Origin: Candidatus Woesearchaeota archaeon
GTDB taxonomy: Archaea > Nanobdellota > Nanobdellia > Woesearchaeales > JABIAG01
Assembly (NCBI GenBank): GCA_018653365.1
Contig: JABIAG010000001.1
Span: forward strand, 634,586 to 698,585
DNA: 64,000 nt
Direction: 5' to 3'
Shown here: in pieces, positions 37,741 to 52,739 of the stretch
How the letters are laid out: each line of letters opens with the position of its first letter
Position numbering within the stretch: position 1 is the stretch's first letter
Made by a program: the position numbers and the translations under genes
Notes under the pieces: model-generated
Databases searched by the model: none
What the model was told of the DNA's origin: nothing
What the model saw: the letters and a program-made list of their open reading frames with translations, nothing else

Positions 37741-39054
37741 TTAAAGCAAAGTCAACATATGCTCTCTAAAGAAGTTCATTGATCGTGGAAACGTATTAAC
37801 CTTCAAAATAGTCTTTTGATAATTATCCCTTAACTTAGCAGCTTGCTTTTGTGTTAAACCTGATTTAACCTCATAAGTTAGATTTGGTTCTAGAACAGTA
37901 CGAGGATGTTCAGTGATAGATTTAATTTGAAACTTATTTGGGTTGGAAAATATTTCCGTATTCTTTTGCAAACCAAAAACAGAAAAAGAAACTAAATCTA
38001 TTGGATTAGTTTCAATTAATTTAATTGATTCCAAGAATTCTTCTTTGGTTTCAGAAGGAAATCCCGCAATCATGTACACAACGTTCTTTATGCCTGCATC
38101 GTGAGAGTTCTTTAAAACAGTTTGAATATCTTTAACATTAGTTCCTTTATTTATTAATTTAAGAATTCTGTTACTAGCTGATTCAACCCCCCACATAATC
38201 ATCTTTAAACCAGATTCTCTTAAAATTGTTAAGGTGTTAAGGTCTAGGTCTATTGTTGGTTTTAGCTGACAGGTCCAAGAAATGTTTAATGGCTTGAATG
38301 CTTTGGCTAATTTTAGTAATCTAGTTTTGTGGATCATATCATCAATTAAGAAAAAATGCTTTTGTTTAGATGAAATAATTGTTTTTAGGATGTCTTCAAT
38401 AGGGAGTTCTTGATAAGGTTGCTGATTGTAATGAGTACAAAAAGTACACTTCTTATAATAACAAGAAGAAGACGTTTTTAGTGGGATAACTGGATGCGGG
38501 GTGAAGTATTCATCTAGGTTATAAATTGAAAAATCAGGAACTGAAGGGAGAGTGTTGGTCGTGTTTAAGTAATTTAATAATTCAGCTTCATCACTTAAAT
38601 ACGTTGAGAGCTTCTTTAACTTATCATTCACTGCAGGCCCACCAATAACCGTTGGAATGTTTAGTTCTCTTAGTAATGCAGTTGCGTAAAACGCCTGACT
38701 TGAATAAACAATACTGAACGCGACTAGGTCAGGTTTTTGCTCTTTTATCTTATTTAATAATTCGTTGAACAATTCTGGCTTTTCTCCGTTTACCACTTTC
38801 TTATTGTTTTCAGAATAAACTTTTCCGGACTCTTTAGTAAACTTAGAAGCAACCTCTTCATAATCATCCCAATTAGTTTGTTTACAGTATTTTTTGAACT
38901 CGGGAAACTTTAACTTATGAAATTCTAAGTTTAGGTCAAGTACGGTTATGTTATGATCAGTATTGGCTTTTAAAACCGAATGTAAATGCGTTAAAGAATA
39001 GGGAGGAGTAACAGGCGTACAAAAAGGAAGATATACCAATAATATGTTTTTCAT
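37741..39054 (-). CDS. radical SAM protein with N-terminal B12-binding-like domain (class B-like)
   Basis: N-terminus ILLVYLPF...PPYSLTHL and the DLVAFSIVYSS Rossmann-like segment. The cluster motif is CYYKKCTFC, i.e. CX4CX2C rather than CX3CX2C. Confidence 0.75.
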   Translation of the reverse strand: MKNILLVYLPFCTPVTPPYSLTHLHSVLKANTDHNITVLDLNLEFHKLKFPEFKKYCKQTNWDDYEEVASKFTKESGKVYSENNKKVVNGEKPELFNELLNKIKEQKPDLVAFSIVYSSQAFYATALLRELNIPTVIGGPAVNDKLKKLSTYLSDEAELLNYLNTTNTLPSVPDFSIYNLDEYFTPHPVIPLKTSSSCYYKKCTFCTHYNQQPYQELPIEDILKTIISSKQKHFFLIDDMIHKTRLLKLAKAFKPLNISWTCQLKPTIDLDLNTLTILRESGLKMIMWGVESASNRILKLINKGTNVKDIQTVLKNSHDAGIKNVVYMIAGFPSETKEEFLESIKLIETNPIDLVSFSVFGLQKNTEIFSNPNKFQIKSITEHPRTVLEPNLTYEVKSGLTQKQAAKLRDNYQKTILKVNTFPRSMNFFREHMLTLL

Positions 39055-39134
39055 ACTTATTGTTAAACTGATTAGATTATAATAGTATTGGTTGAATGCC
39101 CCAAAAAAAGAATTAAAAAGATAGATGTTTATGT

Positions 39135-39773
39135 TTAGACAACGTTAGATTCAATAATTTTACAAATATTTTTAACAGTTTCCTCAAAGTCCCCTGAATT
39201 ATCAACCTCAACAACATTATGATCTGAAACCCGTTCATAAATTAGATCTCTTTGCTTGTAAATTGATCTCATGTCATCTGTGACAGTCTCCCCACGTTCA
39301 CAAAGACGCGCCTCTTGCACTTCAGCAGGCAACTTTAACATAATTGTTAAATCAGGCTTCTTAAGGGGTTTTAGTAATTCACCCATCCAATCAATTAATT
39401 CGGAAATACTTTTAGACTCGTAATCAGAAAGGATTTTTGGAATTTCACAAGAGAAAACACTTGCGACATGACGATCTTTAAGAATAATTTTATTACTACT
39501 CAACGCAGGAATTATGAACTTTTCATTAAAATAAACCAGATCGGAAAAAACTAAGGAAAACCCATACATTGACAAAGGACCCTTCTCTTTTGGAACCAAA
39601 AAAGAATCTTGTTCAAGCAAAGTCTGAAGTGCAACTCCAACTTCTGAATCAGAAAACTCCGCTAATTTTAATATCTCTCGCCCACGCTTTTGCAGTTCTT
39701 GACTTACCGCCTCAATAAGTGATGACTTGCCACAAGCATCCAATCCTTCAAAAGCAACCAAAAGACCCGACAA
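39135..39773 (-). CDS. thymidylate-kinase-like P-loop kinase 1
   Basis: LLVAFEGLDACGKSSL (P-loop), DRHVASVFS and PDLTIML..P..VQEARL follow the Tmk pattern. I propose the TTG start at 39773, 1 nt after the upstream TGA. The track's ATG at 39896 would overlap the upstream gene by 122 nt. Confidence 0.65.
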   Translation of the reverse strand: MSGLLVAFEGLDACGKSSLIEAVSQELQKRGREILKLAEFSDSEVGVALQTLLEQDSFLVPKEKGPLSMYGFSLVFSDLVYFNEKFIIPALSSNKIILKDRHVASVFSCEIPKILSDYESKSISELIDWMGELLKPLKKPDLTIMLKLPAEVQEARLCERGETVTDDMRSIYKQRDLIYERVSDHNVVEVDNSGDFEETVKNICKIIESNVV

Positions 39774-39774
39774 C

Positions 39775-41925
39775 TCAACACCCCTCAAGAATGTTCCTAA
39801 CCTCTGATGTGATTCGGTTGTATTCTGCAGAATCTTTTGTCGCCCAACAAGAGGCATCATGTTCAGTAAGAACAACAGGCCCTTCACTAACCTCAACTAA
39901 AAAATTAAACTGTCTTACAGACTTACCACTTCCAGAAACATAGTCAAAAGAACCAACATATGATTTAAAATCTTGAACATCCAACCCAGTCTCTTCTTTA
40001 ACCTCTCGCACAGTGCCCTCTTTTAATCCTTCCCCTGGATTTAAATTCCCACTTGGCAGTTCATAAATTCCCCCCATAAAGTCTGAAGAAGGCCGGTGTA
40101 ATAACAAGAACTTACCCTCGCGTTTTATTACTGCGCCTACAACAAGTTTTTGTATTCCTTCCTCCTCAGACACTTTTATTAATTCAGTAATGGTTTCATC
40201 CAACATTTTTGGTTTTAAGAGAGCTTTGTGGCTTTTTATAACTTTCCTAAATGCCCTAATATATTCTTCGACAAGCTCTAAATCATCCAAATCATGCCAA
40301 ACAGGAATCTTAAGAGCGTTCTTGTAAAAGCTTTCCGCATGAGGCATATCTCCCCACGTATAGTTTAACTTCCCATCATAATTTGGAAAAAGCTTTTCGG
40401 GCTGTTGCAATAACGGTAATAGGTTAAGAGCTCCAGTTGATCCCGGATGGTCCAATTCACAACACCCTTCAGCCAATAACGCATCATAAAACGTATCAAA
40501 TGGCAAACCATCTAACTCCGCGGAAACGTATTGAATTGTAAAAGCATACCAACTAGGGTCTTTATCTTCAAAGTCCGGAATGTGAATCCCTTTTAACCCC
40601 TTTAACCCCTCAACAAGTCGCGATGCAATAATCCTCCGCGTCTCAACTAATTCCTCAACAGACTCCAATTGTTCGTAAACAATAGCAGCAGCGATAGGGT
40701 GAATTCTGAATTTTAATCCCATTCCCGTAACTGCGTATTTGTAATATTCTGAATCTTTTGGAATCTCATTCTTACAACGCTTGTTATAATGGCCCAATAA
40801 TAAAGCGCGATGAAAAACTTCGTCATTGTTTGTTATTAAACAACCTCCTTCCCCCCCTGTAACAGTTTTAGGACCTTGAATGCTGAACGCGGCGGCATCG
40901 CCAAAGGTTCCAACGAACCGACCTTTATACTTAGCAAAATGTGCATGGGAACAATCTTCCAATAACAAAAGATTATTTTCTTTAGCAATCTTAACAATCG
41001 CATCCATATCGCATGGAACCCCCCACATATGTGTAATAATAATCGCTTTAGTCTTGGAAGAAATCTTCTTTTTAATCTCTAACGGATCTATATTCCCATC
41101 TGCATTACAATCTGCCAAGACAGGTATTGCCCCTGTAAAAAAAAGCGGAGTAATAGTTGCATGAAACGTATATGCCGGACAAATAACTTCATCCCCCTCC
41201 TTTAAATTTGCAGCAACAAATAAAGAGTGTAAAGCAGAAGTTCCTGAATTCGTTAGTAATGCGTGTTTAACCCCATAAATCTTACAAAACTTATCCTCCA
41301 ACTCCTCAATAATCCCTGATCGATCATAAATTGAAATGTTTGAATATAACTGTTTCTTTACTGCTTCTTCTGTTCGCTTTGAAATTATTGGCCAAGAATA
41401 ATGTGAATGAATACGCGTTACAACCTTTTTTCCACCCAGGATTGCTAATTTATCTTCATCCAAAAAACCATTCAAAAATGTTAGTTGTTGTTCCCTATAC
41501 TCTTTAACATCTGAAGCGAAGGGCGAAGAAGAATTAATCTTAGATATCACCTCTTTTAACTCCATAAACTTGCTTCCTTCCCAATAATCTTCAACCTCCT
41601 CAACTGAAGAACAGGATAAGACTTTTCCAAAGAAAAAATACATGTTGTCCCCTTTATACTTCAAATAACGTGCTTTTTGTTTTTCTGTTTTAGCCCAGGT
41701 ATCTCCCCAAACAGTTTTTAATTGACCCAAGCTCCCAACAATCTTTACATTAAACCCAGTCTCTTCAAGCGTTTCACGAATCATTCCAGTTTTAACATTC
41801 TCATTATCAATCCCGCCTCCTGGAAAGATGATCAGACCATTATCTTCCTTAGCGAGGATCTCACCCTTATCATTAAAAAAATACCCTTCACAATTTTTTC
41901 GTAAAGGCAATAAACCTCTGTTCAT
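39775..41925 (-). CDS. tri-domain fusion: NUDIX - DegT/DnrJ/EryC1/StrS-type PLP aminotransferase - NUDIX
   Basis: Nudix box 1 GGGIDNENVKTGMIRETLEETGF. Aminotransferase LLTNSGTSALH...FSIQGPKTVTGGEGG (PLP Lys). Nudix box 2 SGNLNPGEGLKEGTVREVKEETGL. Confidence 0.8.
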   Translation of the reverse strand: MNRGLLPLRKNCEGYFFNDKGEILAKEDNGLIIFPGGGIDNENVKTGMIRETLEETGFNVKIVGSLGQLKTVWGDTWAKTEKQKARYLKYKGDNMYFFFGKVLSCSSVEEVEDYWEGSKFMELKEVISKINSSSPFASDVKEYREQQLTFLNGFLDEDKLAILGGKKVVTRIHSHYSWPIISKRTEEAVKKQLYSNISIYDRSGIIEELEDKFCKIYGVKHALLTNSGTSALHSLFVAANLKEGDEVICPAYTFHATITPLFFTGAIPVLADCNADGNIDPLEIKKKISSKTKAIIITHMWGVPCDMDAIVKIAKENNLLLLEDCSHAHFAKYKGRFVGTFGDAAAFSIQGPKTVTGGEGGCLITNNDEVFHRALLLGHYNKRCKNEIPKDSEYYKYAVTGMGLKFRIHPIAAAIVYEQLESVEELVETRRIIASRLVEGLKGLKGIHIPDFEDKDPSWYAFTIQYVSAELDGLPFDTFYDALLAEGCCELDHPGSTGALNLLPLLQQPEKLFPNYDGKLNYTWGDMPHAESFYKNALKIPVWHDLDDLELVEEYIRAFRKVIKSHKALLKPKMLDETITELIKVSEEEGIQKLVVGAVIKREGKFLLLHRPSSDFMGGIYELPSGNLNPGEGLKEGTVREVKEETGLDVQDFKSYVGSFDYVSGSGKSVRQFNFLVEVSEGPVVLTEHDASCWATKDSAEYNRITSEVRNILEGC

Positions 41926-42551
41926 TTTAACACCTCATGTTTAACCAAGCCATAAATTTCATCAGCAATAATACGCTCATCCCTCTGTCCATCAACACGA
42001 ATAAATCTTGTGTTTCTTAACGTTGAGGGTCGTTCACTTCCCATTATTCTCTCATAAGCACCTTTAAAGTTTATTAATTCGCCAAGATTCTCGTCACATA
42101 ACCTTCCTTTACGGTTTTCGATTCGCTCAAATGCTTGTTCAGGTTCAACATCCAAAAACAAAACCGTTCTAGGCACTGCTGAAATCTCAACCAAGTCCAA
42201 AAACCAAAATGGAAGTAGATCTAGGTGACTTGCATATGCAGTAACAATAGACCTATCTGCAATAAGCACGTTCCCTTCACCAGATTTGGCCTTTTTATAA
42301 CTTGCTCTTGACGACAACGCATACAATGTTTCTTGAAAGTACCGCGATTGTCTTACGCACCTTATTGGTGCAGGAACATCTTCAGAATAACATGCCTTTA
42401 TCATATTCCCCCAAAAGTTATCCTTGGCAGTATAATGCCAGAAACGGACAGGCATTAATTCCTCAACTAATCGTTTTATTAACAATTCTGCCTGCGTGGT
42501 TTTGCCTGAACCATCAATACCCTCAAAAGCTAAATCAAAGTACTCAATCAT
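41922..42551 (-). CDS. thymidylate-kinase-like P-loop kinase 2
   Basis: FEGIDGSGKTTQAELL, LIADRSIVTAYAS, VLFLDVEPEQAFERI. ATGA overlap with the downstream fusion gene. Confidence 0.7.
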   Translation of the reverse strand: MIEYFDLAFEGIDGSGKTTQAELLIKRLVEELMPVRFWHYTAKDNFWGNMIKACYSEDVPAPIRCVRQSRYFQETLYALSSRASYKKAKSGEGNVLIADRSIVTAYASHLDLLPFWFLDLVEISAVPRTVLFLDVEPEQAFERIENRKGRLCDENLGELINFKGAYERIMGSERPSTLRNTRFIRVDGQRDERIIADEIYGLVKHEVLK

Positions 42552-42553
42552 TT

Positions 42554-43657
42554 TTAAGCAAAATAATCCTCCATAACCTCATCACGTCTAACATCAACAG
42601 TCGAACAATGAATACCCCCACCAAACAATTCACTATGTCTTAGCCTAAACGGAATTGGTTCAAATCCAGCACGTTCTAATGCCTTAATTGTTAATTCTGC
42701 AGTATCTCGAATGAGAACTCGCCTTTCATCTAAGGAAATAACATTTACACTCATACCAACATTAGTTGCCATCTGTAAATGATCATCAGGATAATCAAAA
42801 TCTGTTGATTTATCAAAGATCGGAATTACATCCCATCTTTGAAGTTCGTCAGGCAACTGCTGATAAAAACCATGCATGGCACCTTCATTAACTAACAATT
42901 TTCCAGGCGCAAGAGGAACCAAATGTCCATCAATGTGCGTATCACAAAGACGAATTGGATGAACGCGATAAGAATCCCCAAGATGACGCTGTAACCAGGT
43001 TGCTCCCAGTTCATGATTCATAGTCCCAACATTCATAACCACATCCCTACCAAACTTCAAACAGTTTGCAGCATCAAAAGCGATGTCTAAACTTTCAGGC
43101 AGGTCTTCGGGTTGCCTTATTGGATCGTGTAAGTTCTCTTTCCAATAAGAAAAATCAAGTGAATCTTCCCTCATAGAAGGCCGCGGAGCCACAGTCCATT
43201 TTGCACCCGCCCTAAAATACTCCATAAAAACATTTCTTAAAAGTAAGTGCTCAAAATATCTCTTTCGATTTGTTGGGGGGGACTCAATAACCTCGTTCCC
43301 AATACAAAAATACATATCTCTTGGTGAATCGCACCCAGTAGTGTAAGACTCAAAATGAGGAGTCTTAACTGCCTCAATCGCATCTAAACGTGCGGGACGA
43401 CGAACCACTATGCCTTCACCCTCTAAAAGAGCCTGCATTGCATCAAGATCTTCCTGTCTTTCATCAAGATATCTTTGATCAATCTTATGTGGATCATCTC
43501 GATCAGCAAATTTGCCATCACGATTCTCATACATAAACCTAAACGTTTCATCAATGCCCTGCATGTTAAAATTAACACAAGACCCAATAATTATTTCACG
43601 TAACGGGGCCCATTCAGTAAATACATTCACTCTCTGATTGTTTGTTTGTCCATTCAT
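42554..43657 (-). CDS. amidinotransferase (glycine / inosamine-phosphate amidinotransferase family)
   Basis: N-terminus VNVFTEWAPLREIIIGS and C-terminus ELFGGGIHCSTVDVRR (catalytic Cys) match AGAT/StrB1-type enzymes. Start taken at the MNGQT Met. Confidence 0.75.
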   Translation of the reverse strand: MNGQTNNQRVNVFTEWAPLREIIIGSCVNFNMQGIDETFRFMYENRDGKFADRDDPHKIDQRYLDERQEDLDAMQALLEGEGIVVRRPARLDAIEAVKTPHFESYTTGCDSPRDMYFCIGNEVIESPPTNRKRYFEHLLLRNVFMEYFRAGAKWTVAPRPSMREDSLDFSYWKENLHDPIRQPEDLPESLDIAFDAANCLKFGRDVVMNVGTMNHELGATWLQRHLGDSYRVHPIRLCDTHIDGHLVPLAPGKLLVNEGAMHGFYQQLPDELQRWDVIPIFDKSTDFDYPDDHLQMATNVGMSVNVISLDERRVLIRDTAELTIKALERAGFEPIPFRLRHSELFGGGIHCSTVDVRRDEVMEDYFA

Positions 43658-44561
43658 TTTTCTTTTTATAAGGACAAGAACTCCCAAGATAACTTAAAGC
43701 TAACCTAATCTTATTAATTAAATTGAGTTCTGCTCTGTCCTTAATTTCCTCCAAAATATTTATCATTTTTAATTGCGACCTGCAAGGCTTAATCTCGCCT
43801 TGCGGAGTAACAAAAAGATCATTATATTTTCTACAAAACTTACACGGATGACTAATCTCCTCTGCAAATGCACAAAAAATTCTACTTAATCGCACATGAA
43901 GTTTGCCCCTTAAAAAATCAATTGTTCTGTTACCTGCATCCACACGCTTAAATTTTAACTTGTTCAACAACTTTTTAAAATCAGAAATCGAATAAAATCC
44001 TTCAGCAGTCTTAGGAAACAATTCTACAAACTTGACAGACGCATTAAGTTGTTTAGCCAAGGTGAAGTACTCTTCCAGGGATTCTTCAGAGGTGTTAACC
44101 CCATTAATTATTGTTGCATTAAGCCTAATCTCAACTTGAGGATGGGCTAACCTAAACAAAAATAACCCATCCAATACCTTGTCAAAAGAATCCTTTTGGC
44201 ACACTAACTTTTCATAAACCTTCTTATCTAATGAATGAAGAGAAATGTTTATTCTATCAATGTATTTACCAATTTCAAGCTTGTCTTTCAGAAAAAACCC
44301 ATTAGAAGTTATTACAATCTTACCCCCTTGTTTCTTTATTTCTTTTGCTATCTCAACTATATCGGATCTAACCAAAGGTTCGCCACCAGTAAGAGTCACA
44401 TCAGTAAATCCAAACTTTTTTTTCCCAGTTTTAAACAAAACCCCGTAGTCCTTAGATGAAAGCAAATCAGCATTAACATTCTTGATCCCTTCACCATGAC
44501 AGAAAACACAATCGTAATTACAACGCTTAGTTACAACAAATCTAAACTCTCGCTGAGCCAT
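43614..44561 (-). CDS. radical SAM enzyme, MoaA-like (with C-terminal Cys motif)
   Basis: FRFVVTKRCNYDCVFCHGEG, VTLTGGEPLVRSDIVEI and C-terminal CKFCRKYNDLFVTPQGEIKPC resemble the MoaA N- and C-terminal clusters. Confidence 0.7.
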   Translation of the reverse strand: MAQREFRFVVTKRCNYDCVFCHGEGIKNVNADLLSSKDYGVLFKTGKKKFGFTDVTLTGGEPLVRSDIVEIAKEIKKQGGKIVITSNGFFLKDKLEIGKYIDRINISLHSLDKKVYEKLVCQKDSFDKVLDGLFLFRLAHPQVEIRLNATIINGVNTSEESLEEYFTLAKQLNASVKFVELFPKTAEGFYSISDFKKLLNKLKFKRVDAGNRTIDFLRGKLHVRLSRIFCAFAEEISHPCKFCRKYNDLFVTPQGEIKPCRSQLKMINILEEIKDRAELNLINKIRLALSYLGSSCPYKKKNEWTNKQSESECIY

Positions 44562-44678
44562 TTAAACCGTTAATGAGTGAACGTATTTAAAAGTAGTTTA
44601 CGAGGATTAAATAGTTTTCTCAGAAGAGTTTAGAATTAAACAAATTTTTAAACCATTTAAGAGTTTAGTTAAACAAAC

Positions 44679-45851
44679 TTAAAAACCCGCTTCAAAGTTA
44701 ATTTTAACACCTTTCACATTACGTTTAAGCTTTCCCGCAGAATCCAAACGCAAAAATCCCTGAGATTTAAGTTTACTAACATACGAACTGATTGTGGCTA
44801 TGGATTTTTTTAGTTCCCTTGAAACTTCACTGATTGTCTTTGTTCCATCAGCAAGAAGCAGAATATCCAGCGAAATTTTACTTTTAAGAAGGCTACCTAC
44901 TTGATTTGCTTCTTCAGGTTTAGAAATTGACATAACAGACTCATCAAACTCGTTACTATTTTTTAAATAGGTTTCTTTATGTTTTAACAAATACGTGAAT
45001 ACCAATTCAGAAAGTTTTTCGACCACGTCCTCTTTGGACTTCAACTTACTCCAATCCTTCTTTCCATCAAAATAATTAAGGAGTTTAAAATAATCTTCAA
45101 GAGGATTACCTGCATGCATTAAAATATCTCTTATTTCTTCAAGATCCATATTCCATTCAGGAACACGCTCATCAAAAACAACATAAGGTACGGGCGCCAT
45201 CAACAAAAAACAAGGTTTGGTTTTAATTAATCCCTCTTCCATCATCTTTTTTCTAGTTGCCACATACAACTTCTTTTTATAATAATCAGAGAACACCAAA
45301 TCAATAGTTTCGATATCATCCTCAGGACACAACTTATTAAAATAAGTTGAAAAAAACAAATCAATAGAAATTTGAAAGATGTGAGAACATTTTCTAAACT
45401 CACTAAAATCGCCAACAGGCAAACGCGCAAGAATAGAAAAGAATTCTTGAAACAAATTATCCTCTTTGTATAAAACCAAACGTTTCCAAAGATCAGATGC
45501 CTTATACAAAAAAAACTCATCTTCCTTAAAACCAACAGATCTTGCAATCCCCTTAATCTCATGAAGATTGTTCTCAATAAATTCGTCTTTATCCTTAACA
45601 ATATTAGCACAATACTTCTTAAAATAAGGATTCGCTAAAGCATTCATATCCCACATCAAAAGATATAACCTACAATCCAAATCTTTCAGAAACTTATACA
45701 ATTCCTCAAGCATAGCAATAACATCGTAATTTGGAGTTACATAAGTGAAAGAACACAATACATTAATTTTAGAGCCTTTCTTCAAAACAGAAACCTTTTG
45801 CTTAAAATCTTCCAGGTCTTCATCAAATATTTTTGTTGGAACTCCAAACAT
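44679..45851 (-). CDS. wHTH-containing protein with an N-terminal domain resembling a degenerate class I (TyrRS/TrpRS-like) aaRS core
   Basis: C-terminus TISEVSRELKKSIATISSYVSKLKSQGFLRL is a winged HTH. The N-terminus aligns by eye with archaeal TyrRS (RLYLLMWDMNALAN vs [13 protein letters not shown]) but lacks the HIGH and KMSKS motifs. Confidence 0.6.
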   Translation of the reverse strand: MFGVPTKIFDEDLEDFKQKVSVLKKGSKINVLCSFTYVTPNYDVIAMLEELYKFLKDLDCRLYLLMWDMNALANPYFKKYCANIVKDKDEFIENNLHEIKGIARSVGFKEDEFFLYKASDLWKRLVLYKEDNLFQEFFSILARLPVGDFSEFRKCSHIFQISIDLFFSTYFNKLCPEDDIETIDLVFSDYYKKKLYVATRKKMMEEGLIKTKPCFLLMAPVPYVVFDERVPEWNMDLEEIRDILMHAGNPLEDYFKLLNYFDGKKDWSKLKSKEDVVEKLSELVFTYLLKHKETYLKNSNEFDESVMSISKPEEANQVGSLLKSKISLDILLLADGTKTISEVSRELKKSIATISSYVSKLKSQGFLRLDSAGKLKRNVKGVKINFEAGF

Positions 45852-45961
45852 TCAAGAGAGTAACTTAATACTACTTAAATAGTTTTCTATAATTGGTTAA
45901 ACAAATTACTAAAACGTTTAAGTAAGGTTATAATTCAAACAAGGGTTATTCTGAAAAAGAT

Positions 45962-46591: not shown

Positions 46592-46930
46592 TTAGTTGAA
46601 TCCCCTTGGAACGTGAGGAGCAGGTCCACAATACCCTGGCGTCAAAATCAAATCAGGTTTAGCCATGCCCGTTTCCCGCATCATTAAATCGCCACTAGTT
46701 AATCTTGCTGAAAGCGATACATCAGGAGTTGGAGGAGCACACTGCCAAAGAGGTTTAGGTTCAGGAGGCATACAACTCAAAAGTGTAGATACAGAAGATG
46801 CCCGAGAAGTAAGTCCAAAATCAAGAGTTTCTCTAATACGCGCATCACGATCCATACCTGCCTGCATCTGCTCCACCCGTTCCATTATTGTTAAAATTGG
46901 CATTCCATTAACATCATATTGTCTCATCAT
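46592..46930 (-). CDS. hypothetical protein (112 aa), GC-richer ORFan
   Basis: GGAGG and a TATA-like box upstream. No domain recognised. Confidence 0.45.
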   Translation of the reverse strand: MMRQYDVNGMPILTIMERVEQMQAGMDRDARIRETLDFGLTSRASSVSTLLSCMPPEPKPLWQCAPPTPDVSLSARLTSGDLMMRETGMAKPDLILTPGYCGPAPHVPRGFN

Positions 46931-50563: not shown

Positions 50564-51277
50564 TTATTCTAAACTTAGTAATTTATCCTTTTCTAAAACT
50601 TCTTCATGATATTGATTATCTTTCCAATAACACTTGTAAGCGTTAGCTTCAGGTTTAGAAGAAATAATTTTGTATTGGTTGTTTTCTTTTACTAAAGCAG
50701 CACACTCATCTAATGCTATGCCAATTGAACCATTTCTTAACAATTCCTTAAATGGTTGCGCTCTTTTCTCAGTATCATAATGAGGACAGTTTGTGAATGG
50801 AATAAAGTTTAACCCTTCAACATCGCACCACTCATCTTTTCCTTCCATAATTAACGAATCAGACAACCCATCTTTAAACCAACAGATAGAACCCGCACTC
50901 AAACCAGAAAGAACAATATCATCCTTTAATGCATCCTTTAACAAATGGTCAACACATCTTTCTTTCCACAATTTCATCATCTTCTTAGTATTGCCCCCAC
51001 CAACATAAATAATATCAGCTGCAAGAATTGCATCTCTAATCTCTTCATCAGAAGGATTCTTAGTCAAGTACAAAACATCAGTTTGACAACCCAACCCACT
51101 AAAATAACCTTTTACAACATCATAATAAGATTCAGAATCTCCACTAGCAGTAGGTAAAAATAATAACAAAGGATTGGGTTTGTTTGTGAGTTTGATTATT
51201 TCTTTATCTATACTTTCTGTTTCAATCTCGGTTCCTGGCCTTCCTATTTCGCCACCACCAATTGCTACAATCTTCAT
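50564..51277 (-). CDS. peptidase S51 family (dipeptidase E/cyanophycinase-like)
   Basis: MKIVAIGGGEIG, IYVGGGNT, nucleophile region LSGLSAGSICWF. Confidence 0.75.
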   Translation of the reverse strand: MKIVAIGGGEIGRPGTEIETESIDKEIIKLTNKPNPLLLFLPTASGDSESYYDVVKGYFSGLGCQTDVLYLTKNPSDEEIRDAILAADIIYVGGGNTKKMMKLWKERCVDHLLKDALKDDIVLSGLSAGSICWFKDGLSDSLIMEGKDEWCDVEGLNFIPFTNCPHYDTEKRAQPFKELLRNGSIGIALDECAALVKENNQYKIISSKPEANAYKCYWKDNQYHEEVLEKDKLLSLE

Positions 51278-51338
51278 AACAGTTACGAAGAAGAACGATT
51301 TAATAAATGTGTTGCTTTTAGACGATAAATTCAGGAAT

Positions 51339-51349
51339 CTTTATAAAAG
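51339..51349 (+). promoter_or_regulatory. TATA box for the radical-SAM operon (divergent region shared with the S51 peptidase gene)
   Basis: CTTTATAAAAG lies 23-33 nt upstream of the ATG at 51372. Confidence 0.45.
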
Positions 51350-51371
51350 TAGCTCCATTAATATTTATAAA

Positions 51372-52739
51372 ATGAAACGAGTGGCTTTGGTTTATCTGCC
51401 TTACTCGGATATTATTTTTGGGTCTGAGAAAAGCACGAAAGGAATAACCCCTCCACTCGGATTGCTCTACCTACAATCTTATAACAAAGACTTTGCTAAC
51501 ATAAAAGTTTTTGACGGCGAAATTTACGATTCTATAACCGGCCTAATTAACGCAATTAAAATATTTAATCCAGAAATCATAGGCGTTACCTTGCTTACCT
51601 CAACGTTTCCGCGTGCAAAAGAATTCATTTCCCAATTTGATAAACGAATAACACGAATTGCAGGAGGACCATATGCCACCGCACGCCCAACAGAAGTTCT
51701 ACAACACTTTGACATAGCTGCGTCTGGAGAGGCCGAACAAACCCTCAGAGAAATAATTCAAAACAAGCCATTAAGAGATATAAAAGGGATCTATTACAAA
51801 GAAAACAACAAAATAAAGAAAACAGAAAAAAGAGAACCAATAACCAATCTCGATCATCTTCCTCAAATTATCTGGGAAGACGTAGACCTATCCAAATATC
51901 AACAATCCTATGAAAGAGGAAACTTCTCAAACGTAGGGGCAATAATGACCTCCAGAGGATGCGGATTTAACTGTGACTACTGTTGTAGTGAATCAATGTA
52001 TGGAAGTAACGTAAGATTTAGATCAAATACAAACATAATTGAAGAGTTAGAAACACTAAAAAAAAACCACAATGTAAAGTTCATAGAATTTTGGGACGAC
52101 ACATTTACTTTAGGCTATAAGAAAAGAACCGAACTGTTTACTTATTTGAGAAAAAAAGGCATTCATTTCAGTTGTAATGCTCGCGCAGACACTGTTGATG
52201 AAGAGTGCATAAAAATATTAACTAAAGCTGGATGCAAAAACATATTTTTTGGCATAGAATCAGCAAACCCAAACACATTAAAAGACCTTGGACGGAGCAT
52301 GGATCAGAATAAAATAACCAATGCATTCAAACTTGCAAAAAAATATGGACTTAAGACAATAGGGAGTTTTATGTTTGGAGCCCCAAATGAAAACCTAGCA
52401 AGTGTACACCAAACAATTGCACTAGCAAAAAAACTTAATCCAGACAGAGTACTGTTTAACATTGTAACTGCCCATCCCGGAACTAAACTATACAAAAGAT
52501 GTGTTGAAGAAAAAATAATTCCCAGGTACAAAGTAGATCCACAGAAATACGCAAAAGAACCAATAGGGGTTCCTTCGTCCTGCAAAAATATTAATCGAGA
52601 GAAACTCCAAAGACTAAAGTTCCAAGCTTACAAAGAATATTATGTTAGGCCTAAATTCATAATTTCACAATTACTTAAATGTAGAAGTATAACCGAGATA
52701 AAAACATTAATTGATTTAACAAAAACATATAAAAAATGA
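51372..52739 (+). CDS. class B (cobalamin-binding domain) radical SAM enzyme
   Basis: N-terminus VALVYLPY...PPLGLLYLQSY, GVTLLTS, and cluster motif SRGCGFNCDYC. The track's start at 51174 is rejected because it overlaps the S51 gene and the promoter. Confidence 0.85.
   Translation: MKRVALVYLPYSDIIFGSEKSTKGITPPLGLLYLQSYNKDFANIKVFDGEIYDSITGLINAIKIFNPEIIGVTLLTSTFPRAKEFISQFDKRITRIAGGPYATARPTEVLQHFDIAASGEAEQTLREIIQNKPLRDIKGIYYKENNKIKKTEKREPITNLDHLPQIIWEDVDLSKYQQSYERGNFSNVGAIMTSRGCGFNCDYCCSESMYGSNVRFRSNTNIIEELETLKKNHNVKFIEFWDDTFTLGYKKRTELFTYLRKKGIHFSCNARADTVDEECIKILTKAGCKNIFFGIESANPNTLKDLGRSMDQNKITNAFKLAKKYGLKTIGSFMFGAPNENLASVHQTIALAKKLNPDRVLFNIVTAHPGTKLYKRCVEEKIIPRYKVDPQKYAKEPIGVPSSCKNINREKLQRLKFQAYKEYYVRPKFIISQLLKCRSITEIKTLIDLTKTYKK

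Follow-up and report, generated by a model that had tools for sequence, protein, structure and literature searches.

What might an archaeon make with a radical S-adenosylmethionine (SAM) enzyme, an amidinotransferase, nucleotide-type kinases and an aminotransferase flanked by two NUDIX domains? Genes for these proteins lie close together on the minus strand of a 64-kb stretch of contig JABIAG010000001.1 from a Candidatus Woesearchaeota archaeon; this stretch, hereafter the window, was the host genome data used. The initial annotation, made from these letters alone, described six genes, here labelled A (MoaA-like radical SAM), B (amidinotransferase), C (Tmk-like kinase), D (NUDIX–DegT–NUDIX fusion), E (second Tmk-like kinase) and F (B12-type radical SAM), and read them as a streptidine-like guanidino-aminocyclitol or aminosugar pathway or as a modified-nucleotide pathway. 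All six open reading frames (ORFs) are present, their coordinates bear out every junction described, and the domain calls hold at family level, with the function-specific (equivalog) models all scoring far below their cut-offs. The limits of the unit had been misdrawn: a conserved upstream gene, here called up390, was overlooked, and F was wrongly included. The unit comprises an operon from A to D, probably extended by E, and the adjacent regulator-like gene up390. We rate it slightly better than an even chance that this operon makes a sugar-modified nucleotide analogue by aminonucleoside logic, its product being a guanidino-deoxynucleotide antimetabolite.

The case that these genes work together starts with their relatives. 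A core of up390, A, B, C and D is found again, with identities of 40–78%, across six or more DPANN lineages, an arrangement that exceeds chance. Locus L087 keeps the order up390, A, B, C, D, including the same triple fusion, at 63, 55, 78, 49 and 62% identity to the window, and L084 has a partial set of B, C, the N-terminal-type NUDIX, DegT and the C-terminal-type NUDIX. The order is rearranged in L001 and L007 to B, N-terminal-type NUDIX, up390, a nucleoside-diphosphate kinase (NDK)-like gene, the radical SAM, DegT, C-terminal-type NUDIX and then NT5C; L008 follows the same rearranged order as far as DegT, in which its contig ends. L086 carries up390, B, C, N-terminal-type NUDIX and DegT (52, 72, 40, 52 and 53% identity, respectively) with a GreA/B-like gene and a GFO/IDH/MocA secondary-alcohol dehydrogenase after the NUDIX gene; it has no radical SAM, and where that gene is missing the dehydrogenase stands directly upstream of DegT. 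A further partial version, in L083, ends with its contig before a possible DegT. The initial annotation had allowed for separate housekeeping families without conserved co-localisation, and the order kept in these relatives argues otherwise. We found no description in the full-text literature of a system combining a radical SAM, DegT and NUDIX, with or without an amidinotransferase.

Despite its fold, A is not MoaA, and it fails every other mark of membership. Among Radical_SAM proteins its best named family is MoaA (profile match E 3e-24), but it scores 150.4, 124.7 and 136.9 bits against the MoaA equivalogs TIGR02668, TIGR02666 and NF001199, whose cut-offs are 325, 284 and 231. Neither A nor its family has the Mob_synth_C domain (PF06463), which true MoaA matches do contain. 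A keeps the N-terminal CX3CX2C motif and R17 and has T56 where MoaA has R71, and its four family-invariant C-terminal cysteines (C230, C243, C260 and C296; C-X12-C-X16-C-X35-C) are not spaced as the CX2CX13C of MoaA. No moaC or other molybdenum cofactor (Moco) gene occurs in any examined locus, and the initial rejection of a plain MoaA or Moco role is supported. Homologues of A form a discrete family (E <1e-45) in DPANN archaea, candidate phyla radiation (CPR) bacteria and Clostridia, against only ~1e-24 for true MoaA. A search of 1.84 billion representatives with the A profile gave 297 proteins at E <= 1e-30, ~100 of them full-length family members; the family is rare. In IMG/VR viral contigs it is essentially absent, with weak partial matches of ~80 residues only.

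The AlphaFold model of A (predicted local distance difference test score, pLDDT, 91) has MoaA (2fb2/1tv7) as its best Foldseek match, with a template-modelling (TM) score of 0.74 over 325 columns. Its further structural matches are DesII, BlsE, viperins and AbmM, which act on nucleotides or nucleotide-linked sugars, so that by its model A resembles nucleotide-acting enzymes. BtrN is not among the 50 structural matches listed. The four invariant C-terminal cysteines might supply every ligand of an auxiliary cluster, the situation in BtrN-type dehydrogenases. In PADLOC, A matches pVip at 1.6e-21 over residues 8–165 only, short of a full-length viperin.

Domain fusions and neighbours across the family of A are of nucleotide type. 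Fused proteins include cytidylate kinase–radical SAM (P0285, P0286), radical SAM–NUDIX (P0315, P0359), radical SAM–HD (P0302) and, in Clostridia, a 716-aa radical SAM–DegT polypeptide (P0266, P0342); a NUDIX–Tmk fusion is found in L013. The immediate neighbours of the radical SAM elsewhere are MutT-type NUDIX, CYTH (with the ExExK motif), HD, NT5C deoxyribonucleotidase, NDK-like and Tmk-like genes, and a phosphohydrolase (NUDIX, CYTH or HD) lies at most two genes away in nearly every family locus. From this pattern the substrate of the cluster is likely the nucleotide itself and not a nucleotide-linked sugar. Of the two initial readings the modified-nucleotide one is favoured by these fusions and neighbours and the streptidine-like aminocyclitol is disfavoured; likewise, the ‘nucleotide-activated intermediate’ proposed at first was right about nucleotide involvement but understated it.

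The domain calls for the partners of A also hold at family level. The DegT domain of D scores 252.5 bits against PF01041 (gathering 19.8) and carries the pyridoxal phosphate (PLP)-lysine motif SIQGPKTVTGGEGG in its translation; its function-specific equivalogs (PseC, WecE, DesI and others) all stay below cut-off, and its relatives in the PDB are sugar and inosose aminotransferases (1e-46 to 1e-38). Both NUDIX boxes are intact, GGGIDNENVKTGMIRETLEETGF and GNLNPGEGLKEGTVREVKEETGL, each of the form GX5EX7REUXEEXGU (PF00293, 78 bits, two stretches), and (d)NTP pyrophosphohydrolases are the enzymes that the domains most resemble. In L001, L008, L083 and L086 the N-terminal NUDIX stands as its own gene beside B; in L087 it is part of the fusion. 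The C-terminal NUDIX, which matches the defence model PDC-S07 at 3e-19, belongs to a type found together with the radical SAM at most loci of the family.

Kinases C and E have P-loops and reach 52–54 bits against Pfam Thymidylate_kin (gathering 27), with 52.0 and 54.7 bits, respectively, against the dTMP kinase equivalog TIGR00041, below its cut-off of 83.25. C holds the same position in L084, L086 and L087 (42, 40 and 49% identity). E was not found at this position in L087, L086 or L001, and its coupling to D is confined to this window; E matches the defence model of VakA at 2e-11. The two-kinase cluster first described thus stands for C, whereas E, although present, is not kept there in any relative. 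E is a probable member in this window only, and could instead be the housekeeping Tmk. Where the window has E, the closest syntenic relative, L087, carries another NUDIX, of 125 aa, and a second radical SAM that is more like MoaA (316 aa, CNFKCYYC; L087:7113-8430).

Amidinotransferase B aligns over its full length (residues 9–366) with HsvA, SxtG, StrB1 and AGAT at E 3.8e-58 to 1.8e-51 and has no Pfam match. Alignments with HsvA and SxtG show the motifs FDAA(D/N), HID and HC(S/A)T to be kept (FDAAN for FDAAD, THIDGH for MHIDTT/LHIDTT and GGIHCSTVDV for GSFHCATLDV); we take them, from what is established for AGAT, to hold the catalytic Cys-His-Asp triad, and the initial call of an amidinotransferase stands. 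B is 72–78% identical in L001, L008, L083, L084, L086 and L087. It was seen only in loci with DegT, whichever oxidant they carry, and always with an N-terminal-type NUDIX (the contig of L083 ends before DegT).

Homologues of B also occur in phages. The one in Campylobacter phage CP220 (L070, 68923-83972; 34% identity) lies within a run of six radical SAM genes with glycosyltransferase-like and PAP2 genes, and that of Synechococcus phage S-SCSM2R (L071; 25%) among DegT-like, radical SAM, 2-oxoglutarate (2OG)-oxygenase and glycosyltransferase genes, which have been called antibiotic genes (PMC12801897). PHROG 25854, whose function is unassigned, matches B at 6e-48. A viral origin of the cluster was considered and rejected, given the 25–34% identity and glycosyltransferase-rich contexts of these homologues and the weak, 80-residue radical SAM matches in IMG/VR.

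Upstream of A, up390 is kept beside the cluster in L087 (63%), L001 and L007 (55%), L008 (51%) and L086 (52%). In its AlphaFold model (pLDDT 86.6) the N-terminal ~300 residues adopt a fold like that of the tryptophanyl- and tyrosyl-tRNA synthetases (TrpRS and TyrRS; class Ic aminoacyl-tRNA synthetases), its top Foldseek matches are all TrpRS or TyrRS (E 3e-9 to 1e-7), and residues 331–367 match HTH_5/HTH_24. A sequence search of the PDB returned no match for up390, and a profile comparison with MjTyrRS, made with an approximate sequence of the latter, was insignificant (E 0.33). On its modelled fold up390 may be a derivative of a tRNA synthetase that senses a ligand and regulates the operon, and such a synthetase-fold sensor fused to a DNA-binding domain would be a new kind of sensor domain. 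The idea of an active aminoacyl-tRNA-synthetase-like ligase, analogous to Pur6, was not supported by these two comparisons, and the HIGH and KMSKS positions, read by eye, are TPNY and VPEWNM. A paralogue group of ~414 aa is found at L085:4902-9245, divergent from a cluster of B12 radical SAM, CYTH, kinase and GreA/B-like genes, of which the kinase matches PDC-M51B at 5e-36 and VakA at 3e-21. This regulator family may accompany several nucleotide-modifying systems in DPANN archaea.

These parts suggest the following route. The Tmk-like kinase or kinases would raise a nucleoside monophosphate (NMP), probably of a pyrimidine, at which the kinase types hint, to the di- or triphosphate. A would then abstract a ribose hydrogen, likeliest at the 3' position by analogy, and yield a keto-nucleotide, either through a BtrN-like two-electron oxidation of the ring hydroxyl or through a BlsE/AprD4-like radical dehydration. 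This role is proposed because A is the sole redox enzyme of the window's operon and D needs a ketone, because L086 has a dehydrogenase upstream of DegT and no radical SAM, and because radical SAM and DegT form one polypeptide in Clostridia. L086 and the four cysteines favour oxidation over dehydration, although the two routes cannot be told apart. The DegT domain of D would transaminate the ketone to an amino-deoxy-nucleotide, and B would move the amidino group of arginine onto the new amine to give a guanidino-deoxy-nucleotide; this is the simplest role for B since it occurs only with DegT, whichever oxidant is present, and it parallels StrB1 acting on inosamine phosphate. The two NUDIX domains would remove pyrophosphate, and so either make the true acceptor of B or detoxify or export the product, while the kinases (Tmk-like here, Cmk or NDK-like elsewhere) may supply or regenerate phosphorylated forms, like viperin-associated kinases. 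Control of the operon would fall to up390 as ligand sensor. The predicted product is an antimetabolite, either a chain terminator or a mimic of a nucleoside triphosphate (NTP), acting against intracellular viruses or as a secreted nucleoside.

Several points weigh against a guanidino-deoxynucleotide antimetabolite. Only one lineage, L086, shows a dehydrogenase in the place of the radical SAM, and a distant Clostridial branch has a radical SAM and a GFO/IDH/MocA-like protein together, without DegT, so that one does not simply stand in for the other throughout the family. Kinases and NUDIX domains in one operon act in opposite directions, and the order of steps cannot be fixed. Similarity places the DegT domain no nearer to nucleotide-specific aminotransferases than to those of sugars and inososes, and B is equidistant from HsvA, SxtG, StrB1 and AGAT, so that its acceptor cannot be read from similarity. 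The cluster in the window contains no monophosphatase or exporter gene, the defence-model matches cover generic core regions only, and we know of no natural guanidino-ribose nucleoside. What is observed are the domain identities, the synteny, the gene fusions and the separation of A from MoaA; substrate, ring position, order of steps, product and role are all inferred.

The streptidine-like reading, in which an inositol or sugar-phosphate alcohol is oxidised (BtrN-, StrI- or NeoA-like), transaminated (StsC/BtrR), phosphorylated and amidinated (StrB1), matches the enzyme classes here step for step: StrB1 is among the best matches of B (2.6e-57), 2-deoxy-scyllo-inosose aminotransferases match the DegT domain at 1e-38, and the alternation of radical SAM and dehydrogenase seen in L086 recalls BtrN and NeoA. 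We nevertheless regard it as improbable, as the kinases are P-loop enzymes of Tmk, Cmk and NDK types and not APH-like or sugar kinases, the MutT-type NUDIX, CYTH, HD and NT5C partners all act on nucleotides, a cytidylate kinase–radical SAM fusion exists, and A is nearest in fold and profile to MoaA, not BtrN. Nor does any locus contain an inositol(-phosphate) or 2-deoxy-scyllo-inosose synthase, an inositol monophosphatase or a glycosyltransferase. All of ~12 syntenic loci lack a sugar-1-phosphate nucleotidyltransferase, a 4,6-dehydratase, a glycosyltransferase and a flippase, which makes it more doubtful still that the cluster tailors nucleoside-diphosphate (NDP)-sugars in the manner of DesI/DesII/DesV, building for a surface glycan a deoxysugar that bears an amino or guanidino group, with NUDIX domains that hydrolyse NDP-sugars and Tmk-like kinases that supply dTDP. 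DegT enzymes do usually use NDP-keto-sugars, the best named NCBIfam matches are of PseC, WecE and DesI types, DesII is among the structural matches of A, and the phage amidinotransferase homologues sit among glycosyltransferases; yet all NCBIfam matches fall far below the equivalog cut-offs, the NUDIX domains are most like (d)NTP pyrophosphohydrolases, and the phage homologues are distant and differ in context.

A modified nucleotide need not be a toxin, and it could be a precursor for nucleic-acid hypermodification, a cofactor or a signal, with the kinases regenerating the triphosphate. Kinases and pyrophosphohydrolases do occur together in phage DNA-hypermodification and nucleotide-signalling systems, amidinotransferase homologues lie beside radical SAM genes in Campylobacter and cyanobacterial phages, and a signal could plausibly have a ligand-sensing regulator of its own. 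We hold this too to be improbable, about as much so as the two sugar routes: none of the loci has a linked gene for a polymerase, transglycosylase, base-exchange enzyme or effector, the family of A is absent from IMG/VR viral contigs save for weak partial matches, and NT5C in L001 suggests that a free nucleoside is released. That housekeeping genes for genuine MoaA and Tmk enzymes and for a sugar aminotransferase lie together by chance is already contradicted and hardly tenable. MoaA and dTMP kinase are indeed the best named families, but A reaches 150 bits of the 325 needed for MoaA and is without Mob_synth_C and CX2CX13C, C and E reach 52–55 bits of 83, gene order is kept in at least six lineages with the domains fused in others, and no locus has Moco genes.

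The product that we favour may have one of three roles. It could be a cell-autonomous antiviral chain terminator, for which the similarity to pVip, VakA and PDC-S07 and the built-in kinases speak; it could be a secreted nucleoside antibiotic, given NT5C in L001 and the precedent of 3'-amino-3'-deoxyguanosine (ADG); or it could be another kind of metabolite. A bolder version, tentative and in our view rather unlikely, holds that DPANN archaea make a natural 3'-guanidino-3'-deoxynucleotide or nucleoside by an O2- and NAD-independent route, under a regulator whose sensor domain comes from a Trp/Tyr-tRNA synthetase, and that the wider radical SAM–DegT–NUDIX family of CPR bacteria and gut Clostridia has gone unrecognised as a widespread producer of aminonucleotide chain terminators, which would serve to fight viruses or rival microbes. 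If the main reading is correct, the chemistry of puromycin and ADG would reach symbiotic archaea of ultra-small size as well as CPR bacteria and gut Clostridia, with a radical SAM enzyme standing in for an NAD-dependent dehydrogenase. A guanidino-substituted nucleotide would be predicted as a candidate polymerase chain terminator or NTP mimic, and organisms of reduced genome that rely on hosts for nucleotides would still invest in nucleotide antimetabolites. Genome pipelines label the family of A ‘GTP 3',8-cyclase’, and the cluster as read here gives this rare, unannotated MoaA-like family concrete functional hypotheses that can be tested.

Within the window the operon is tightly packed (Table 1). 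Gene A ends with its stop at 43614-43616, and the ATG of B at 43657 falls within A by 44 nt; this start is backed by an independent gene call on another assembly with an identical 367-aa product. B and C are 2 nt apart, C and D overlap by the 4 nt of ATGA, and the candidate TTG of E at 39773 is 1 nt past the TGA of D. The spacer between up390 and A holds GTTTA-N2/4-TAAAC palindromes at 44663 and 44628, two of the five in the whole window, where 1.7 are expected; GTTTAAATAAAC sits in the equivalent spacer of L001 (L001:9567), a Pacearchaeota relative. The 8-mer TGTTTAAC is seen 10 times against 5.3 expected, a weak enrichment. A palindrome or TGTTTAAC core is also found at 45896, so that both promoter-proximal spacers of the cluster carry one. 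The palindromes are candidate operators for the winged helix-turn-helix protein up390, their enrichment being weak.

Table 1 Positions of the cluster genes, the domains of D and the neighbouring features in the window.
Feature	Position	Strand	Description
up390	44679..45851	(-)	390 aa; TrpRS/TyrRS-like fold (by model) and C-terminal winged helix-turn-helix
A–E operon promoter region	44562..44678	intergenic	TTTAAATA box ~25 nt 5' of the ATG, and two palindromes
A	43614..44561	(-)	MoaA-fold radical SAM, 315 aa; CNYDCVFC and four invariant C-terminal Cys
B	42554..43657	(-)	L-arginine-type amidinotransferase, AGAT/StrB1/HsvA/SxtG family, 367 aa, ATG start
C	41922..42551	(-)	Tmk-like P-loop nucleoside-monophosphate kinase; FEGIDGSGKT P-loop, DRS motif
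D	39775..41925	(-)	NUDIX-DegT-NUDIX fusion, 716 aa
D, N-terminal NUDIX	41461..41925	(-)	Residues ~1-155; intact GX5EX7REUXEEXGU box
D, central aminotransferase domain	40231..41400	(-)	DegT/DnrJ/EryC1/StrS PLP aminotransferase; Pfam 252 bits
D, C-terminal NUDIX	39775..40176	(-)	MutT-type; best named matches NudG, MutT
E	39135..39773	(-)	Second Tmk-like kinase, TTG start; Thymidylate_kin 53.8 bits
F	37741..39054	(-)	B12-type radical SAM, CYYKKCTFC

F had been counted in the cluster and is instead a ubiquitous DPANN gene found in unrelated contexts. More than 120 orthologues (51–65% identity) occur in Woesearchaeota and Nanoarchaeota, and the unusual CX4CX2C spacing of its cluster motif, noted at the outset, is kept in 120 of 120. 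The 80-nt spacer 5' of F with its TATA-like box is likewise real, the box being TATTATAA, ~30 nt upstream of the ATG. The B12-binding Pfam match of F is below gathering (23 against 32.1). No homologue of F occurs in any of the syntenic cluster loci, and no cluster gene in any of the four contexts of F orthologues (L067, L068, L069 and L089). In two of these an RluA-type pseudouridine synthase is the next gene downstream; Dus is close by in two, and Methyltransf_30 is the neighbour in one and part of a fusion in P0123; L068 shares a DEAD-helicase neighbour with F of the window. Together this context points to a role in RNA modification. We discarded F as a GenK/Fom3-like C-methylase tailoring the cluster's product, given its widespread orthologues and the four unrelated contexts without cluster genes. 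That E and F form a PDC-M51-like pair of kinase and B12 radical SAM was likewise rejected: the matches are weak (1e-10, 3e-9), F orthologues have no kinase neighbour, and the B12 radical SAM that L085 does have in a cluster of this kind shows no similarity to F.

Other features were noted in passing. A second B12-binding radical SAM (51174-52739 (+), 521 aa; B12-binding 3e-12, Radical_SAM 1e-24) is unrelated to the cluster. A GC-rich island at 46600-46930 (44–49% GC against ~33% around it) holds two antisense ORFs of ~100 aa; it has no Pfam or Rfam match and folds no better than shuffled sequences (z 0.5 and 1.6). In the family of A, a distant branch from Clostridia metagenome-assembled genomes (MAGs; L018-L027, 31–34% identity; for example L018:9068-13574) has the radical SAM fused to a full LysR regulator (609 aa), followed by CYTH-like, GFO/IDH/MocA-like and NUDIX genes and no aminotransferase; in L017 and L024 the gene of this branch lies beside a radical SAM–DegT fusion cluster. 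Two CPR loci (L003:7139-7699 (-) and L009:10912-11463 (-)) encode, between radical SAM and NUDIX, a conserved protein of 183–186 aa with no Pfam match, which by eye may resemble nucleoside 2-deoxyribosyltransferase/Rcl-like Rossmann proteins.

How, then, does the cluster compare with what is known? In the puromycin pathway the relevant enzymes are Pur10 (an NAD-dependent ATP dehydrogenase, whose amino terminus resembles RifL), Pur4 (aminotransferase), Pur7 (Nudix) and Pur3 (phosphatase) (PMC11641026). The genes adgB-E, homologous to pur10, pur4, pur7 and pur3, make ADG from GTP, and the triphosphate of ADG terminates RNA chains (PMC9239236). By enzyme class the cluster is like these Pur/Adg systems (puromycin/A201A/cystocin; Photorhabdus), in which an oxidant, a DegT aminotransferase and a Nudix enzyme, with or without a monophosphatase, work in turn on an NTP. 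Their flow from NTP to keto-NTP, amino-deoxy-NTP and NMP would be matched by the logic proposed here, and DegT and Nudix share one cluster in both, fused in D and linked in most loci of the A family. Like Pur10, the dehydrogenase of L086 is of the GFO/IDH/MocA class, to which RifL belongs, and L001 adds the nucleotidase NT5C. Unlike Pur/Adg, the window has a MoaA-fold radical SAM in place of a Pur10-type oxidant and built-in NMP kinases; its amidinotransferase and second NUDIX have no counterpart there, and the hosts are DPANN, CPR and Clostridia, not actinomycetes or Photorhabdus.

With streptidine and 2-deoxystreptamine chemistry (StrI/NeoA, BtrN, StsC/BtrR and StrB1) the cluster shares ring-alcohol oxidation, transamination and amidination of a phosphorylated amine, and StrB1 and B are full-length homologues. 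BtrN and NeoA are a precedent for the alternation of a radical SAM with an NAD-dehydrogenase that both show. The scaffold differs in apparently being the ribose of a nucleotide, with kinases and hydrolases of nucleotide type and a radical SAM nearest MoaA, not BtrN. pVips are similar in having a radical SAM that uses an NTP, together with NMP kinases encoded beside it or fused to it, as in the Cmk–radical SAM fusions, and in the chain-terminating output expected; the match is to the N-terminal core only, A has a Cys-rich MoaA-like C-terminal domain not present in viperins, and its product would be transaminated and amidinated, not a ddh-NTP. BlsE/BlsH of blasticidin S, DesII/DesI-DesV and AbmM likewise employ a MoaA-related or twitch radical SAM on a nucleoside- or nucleotide-linked sugar ring, and BlsE/BlsH and DesII/DesV pair it with a DegT-family PLP enzyme, as in the cluster. 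However, the substrates of BlsE, DesII and AbmM are cytosylglucuronate, TDP-sugars and CDP, respectively, their systems have no NUDIX or amidinotransferase, and they show no close identity to A. MoaA itself gives the best fold and profile match, with an N-terminal CX3CX2C and a C-terminal domain with a Cys-ligated cluster in common, and is set apart by Mob_synth_C, its Cys spacing, R71 for T56, the equivalog scores and its Moco neighbours. Set against the nearest of these systems, namely the Pur/Adg core, streptidine chemistry and kinase-linked pVips, the cluster differs in its MoaA-fold radical SAM as putative oxidant, an added amidinotransferase and second NUDIX, a candidate regulator of tRNA-synthetase fold, and DPANN, CPR and Clostridia as hosts.

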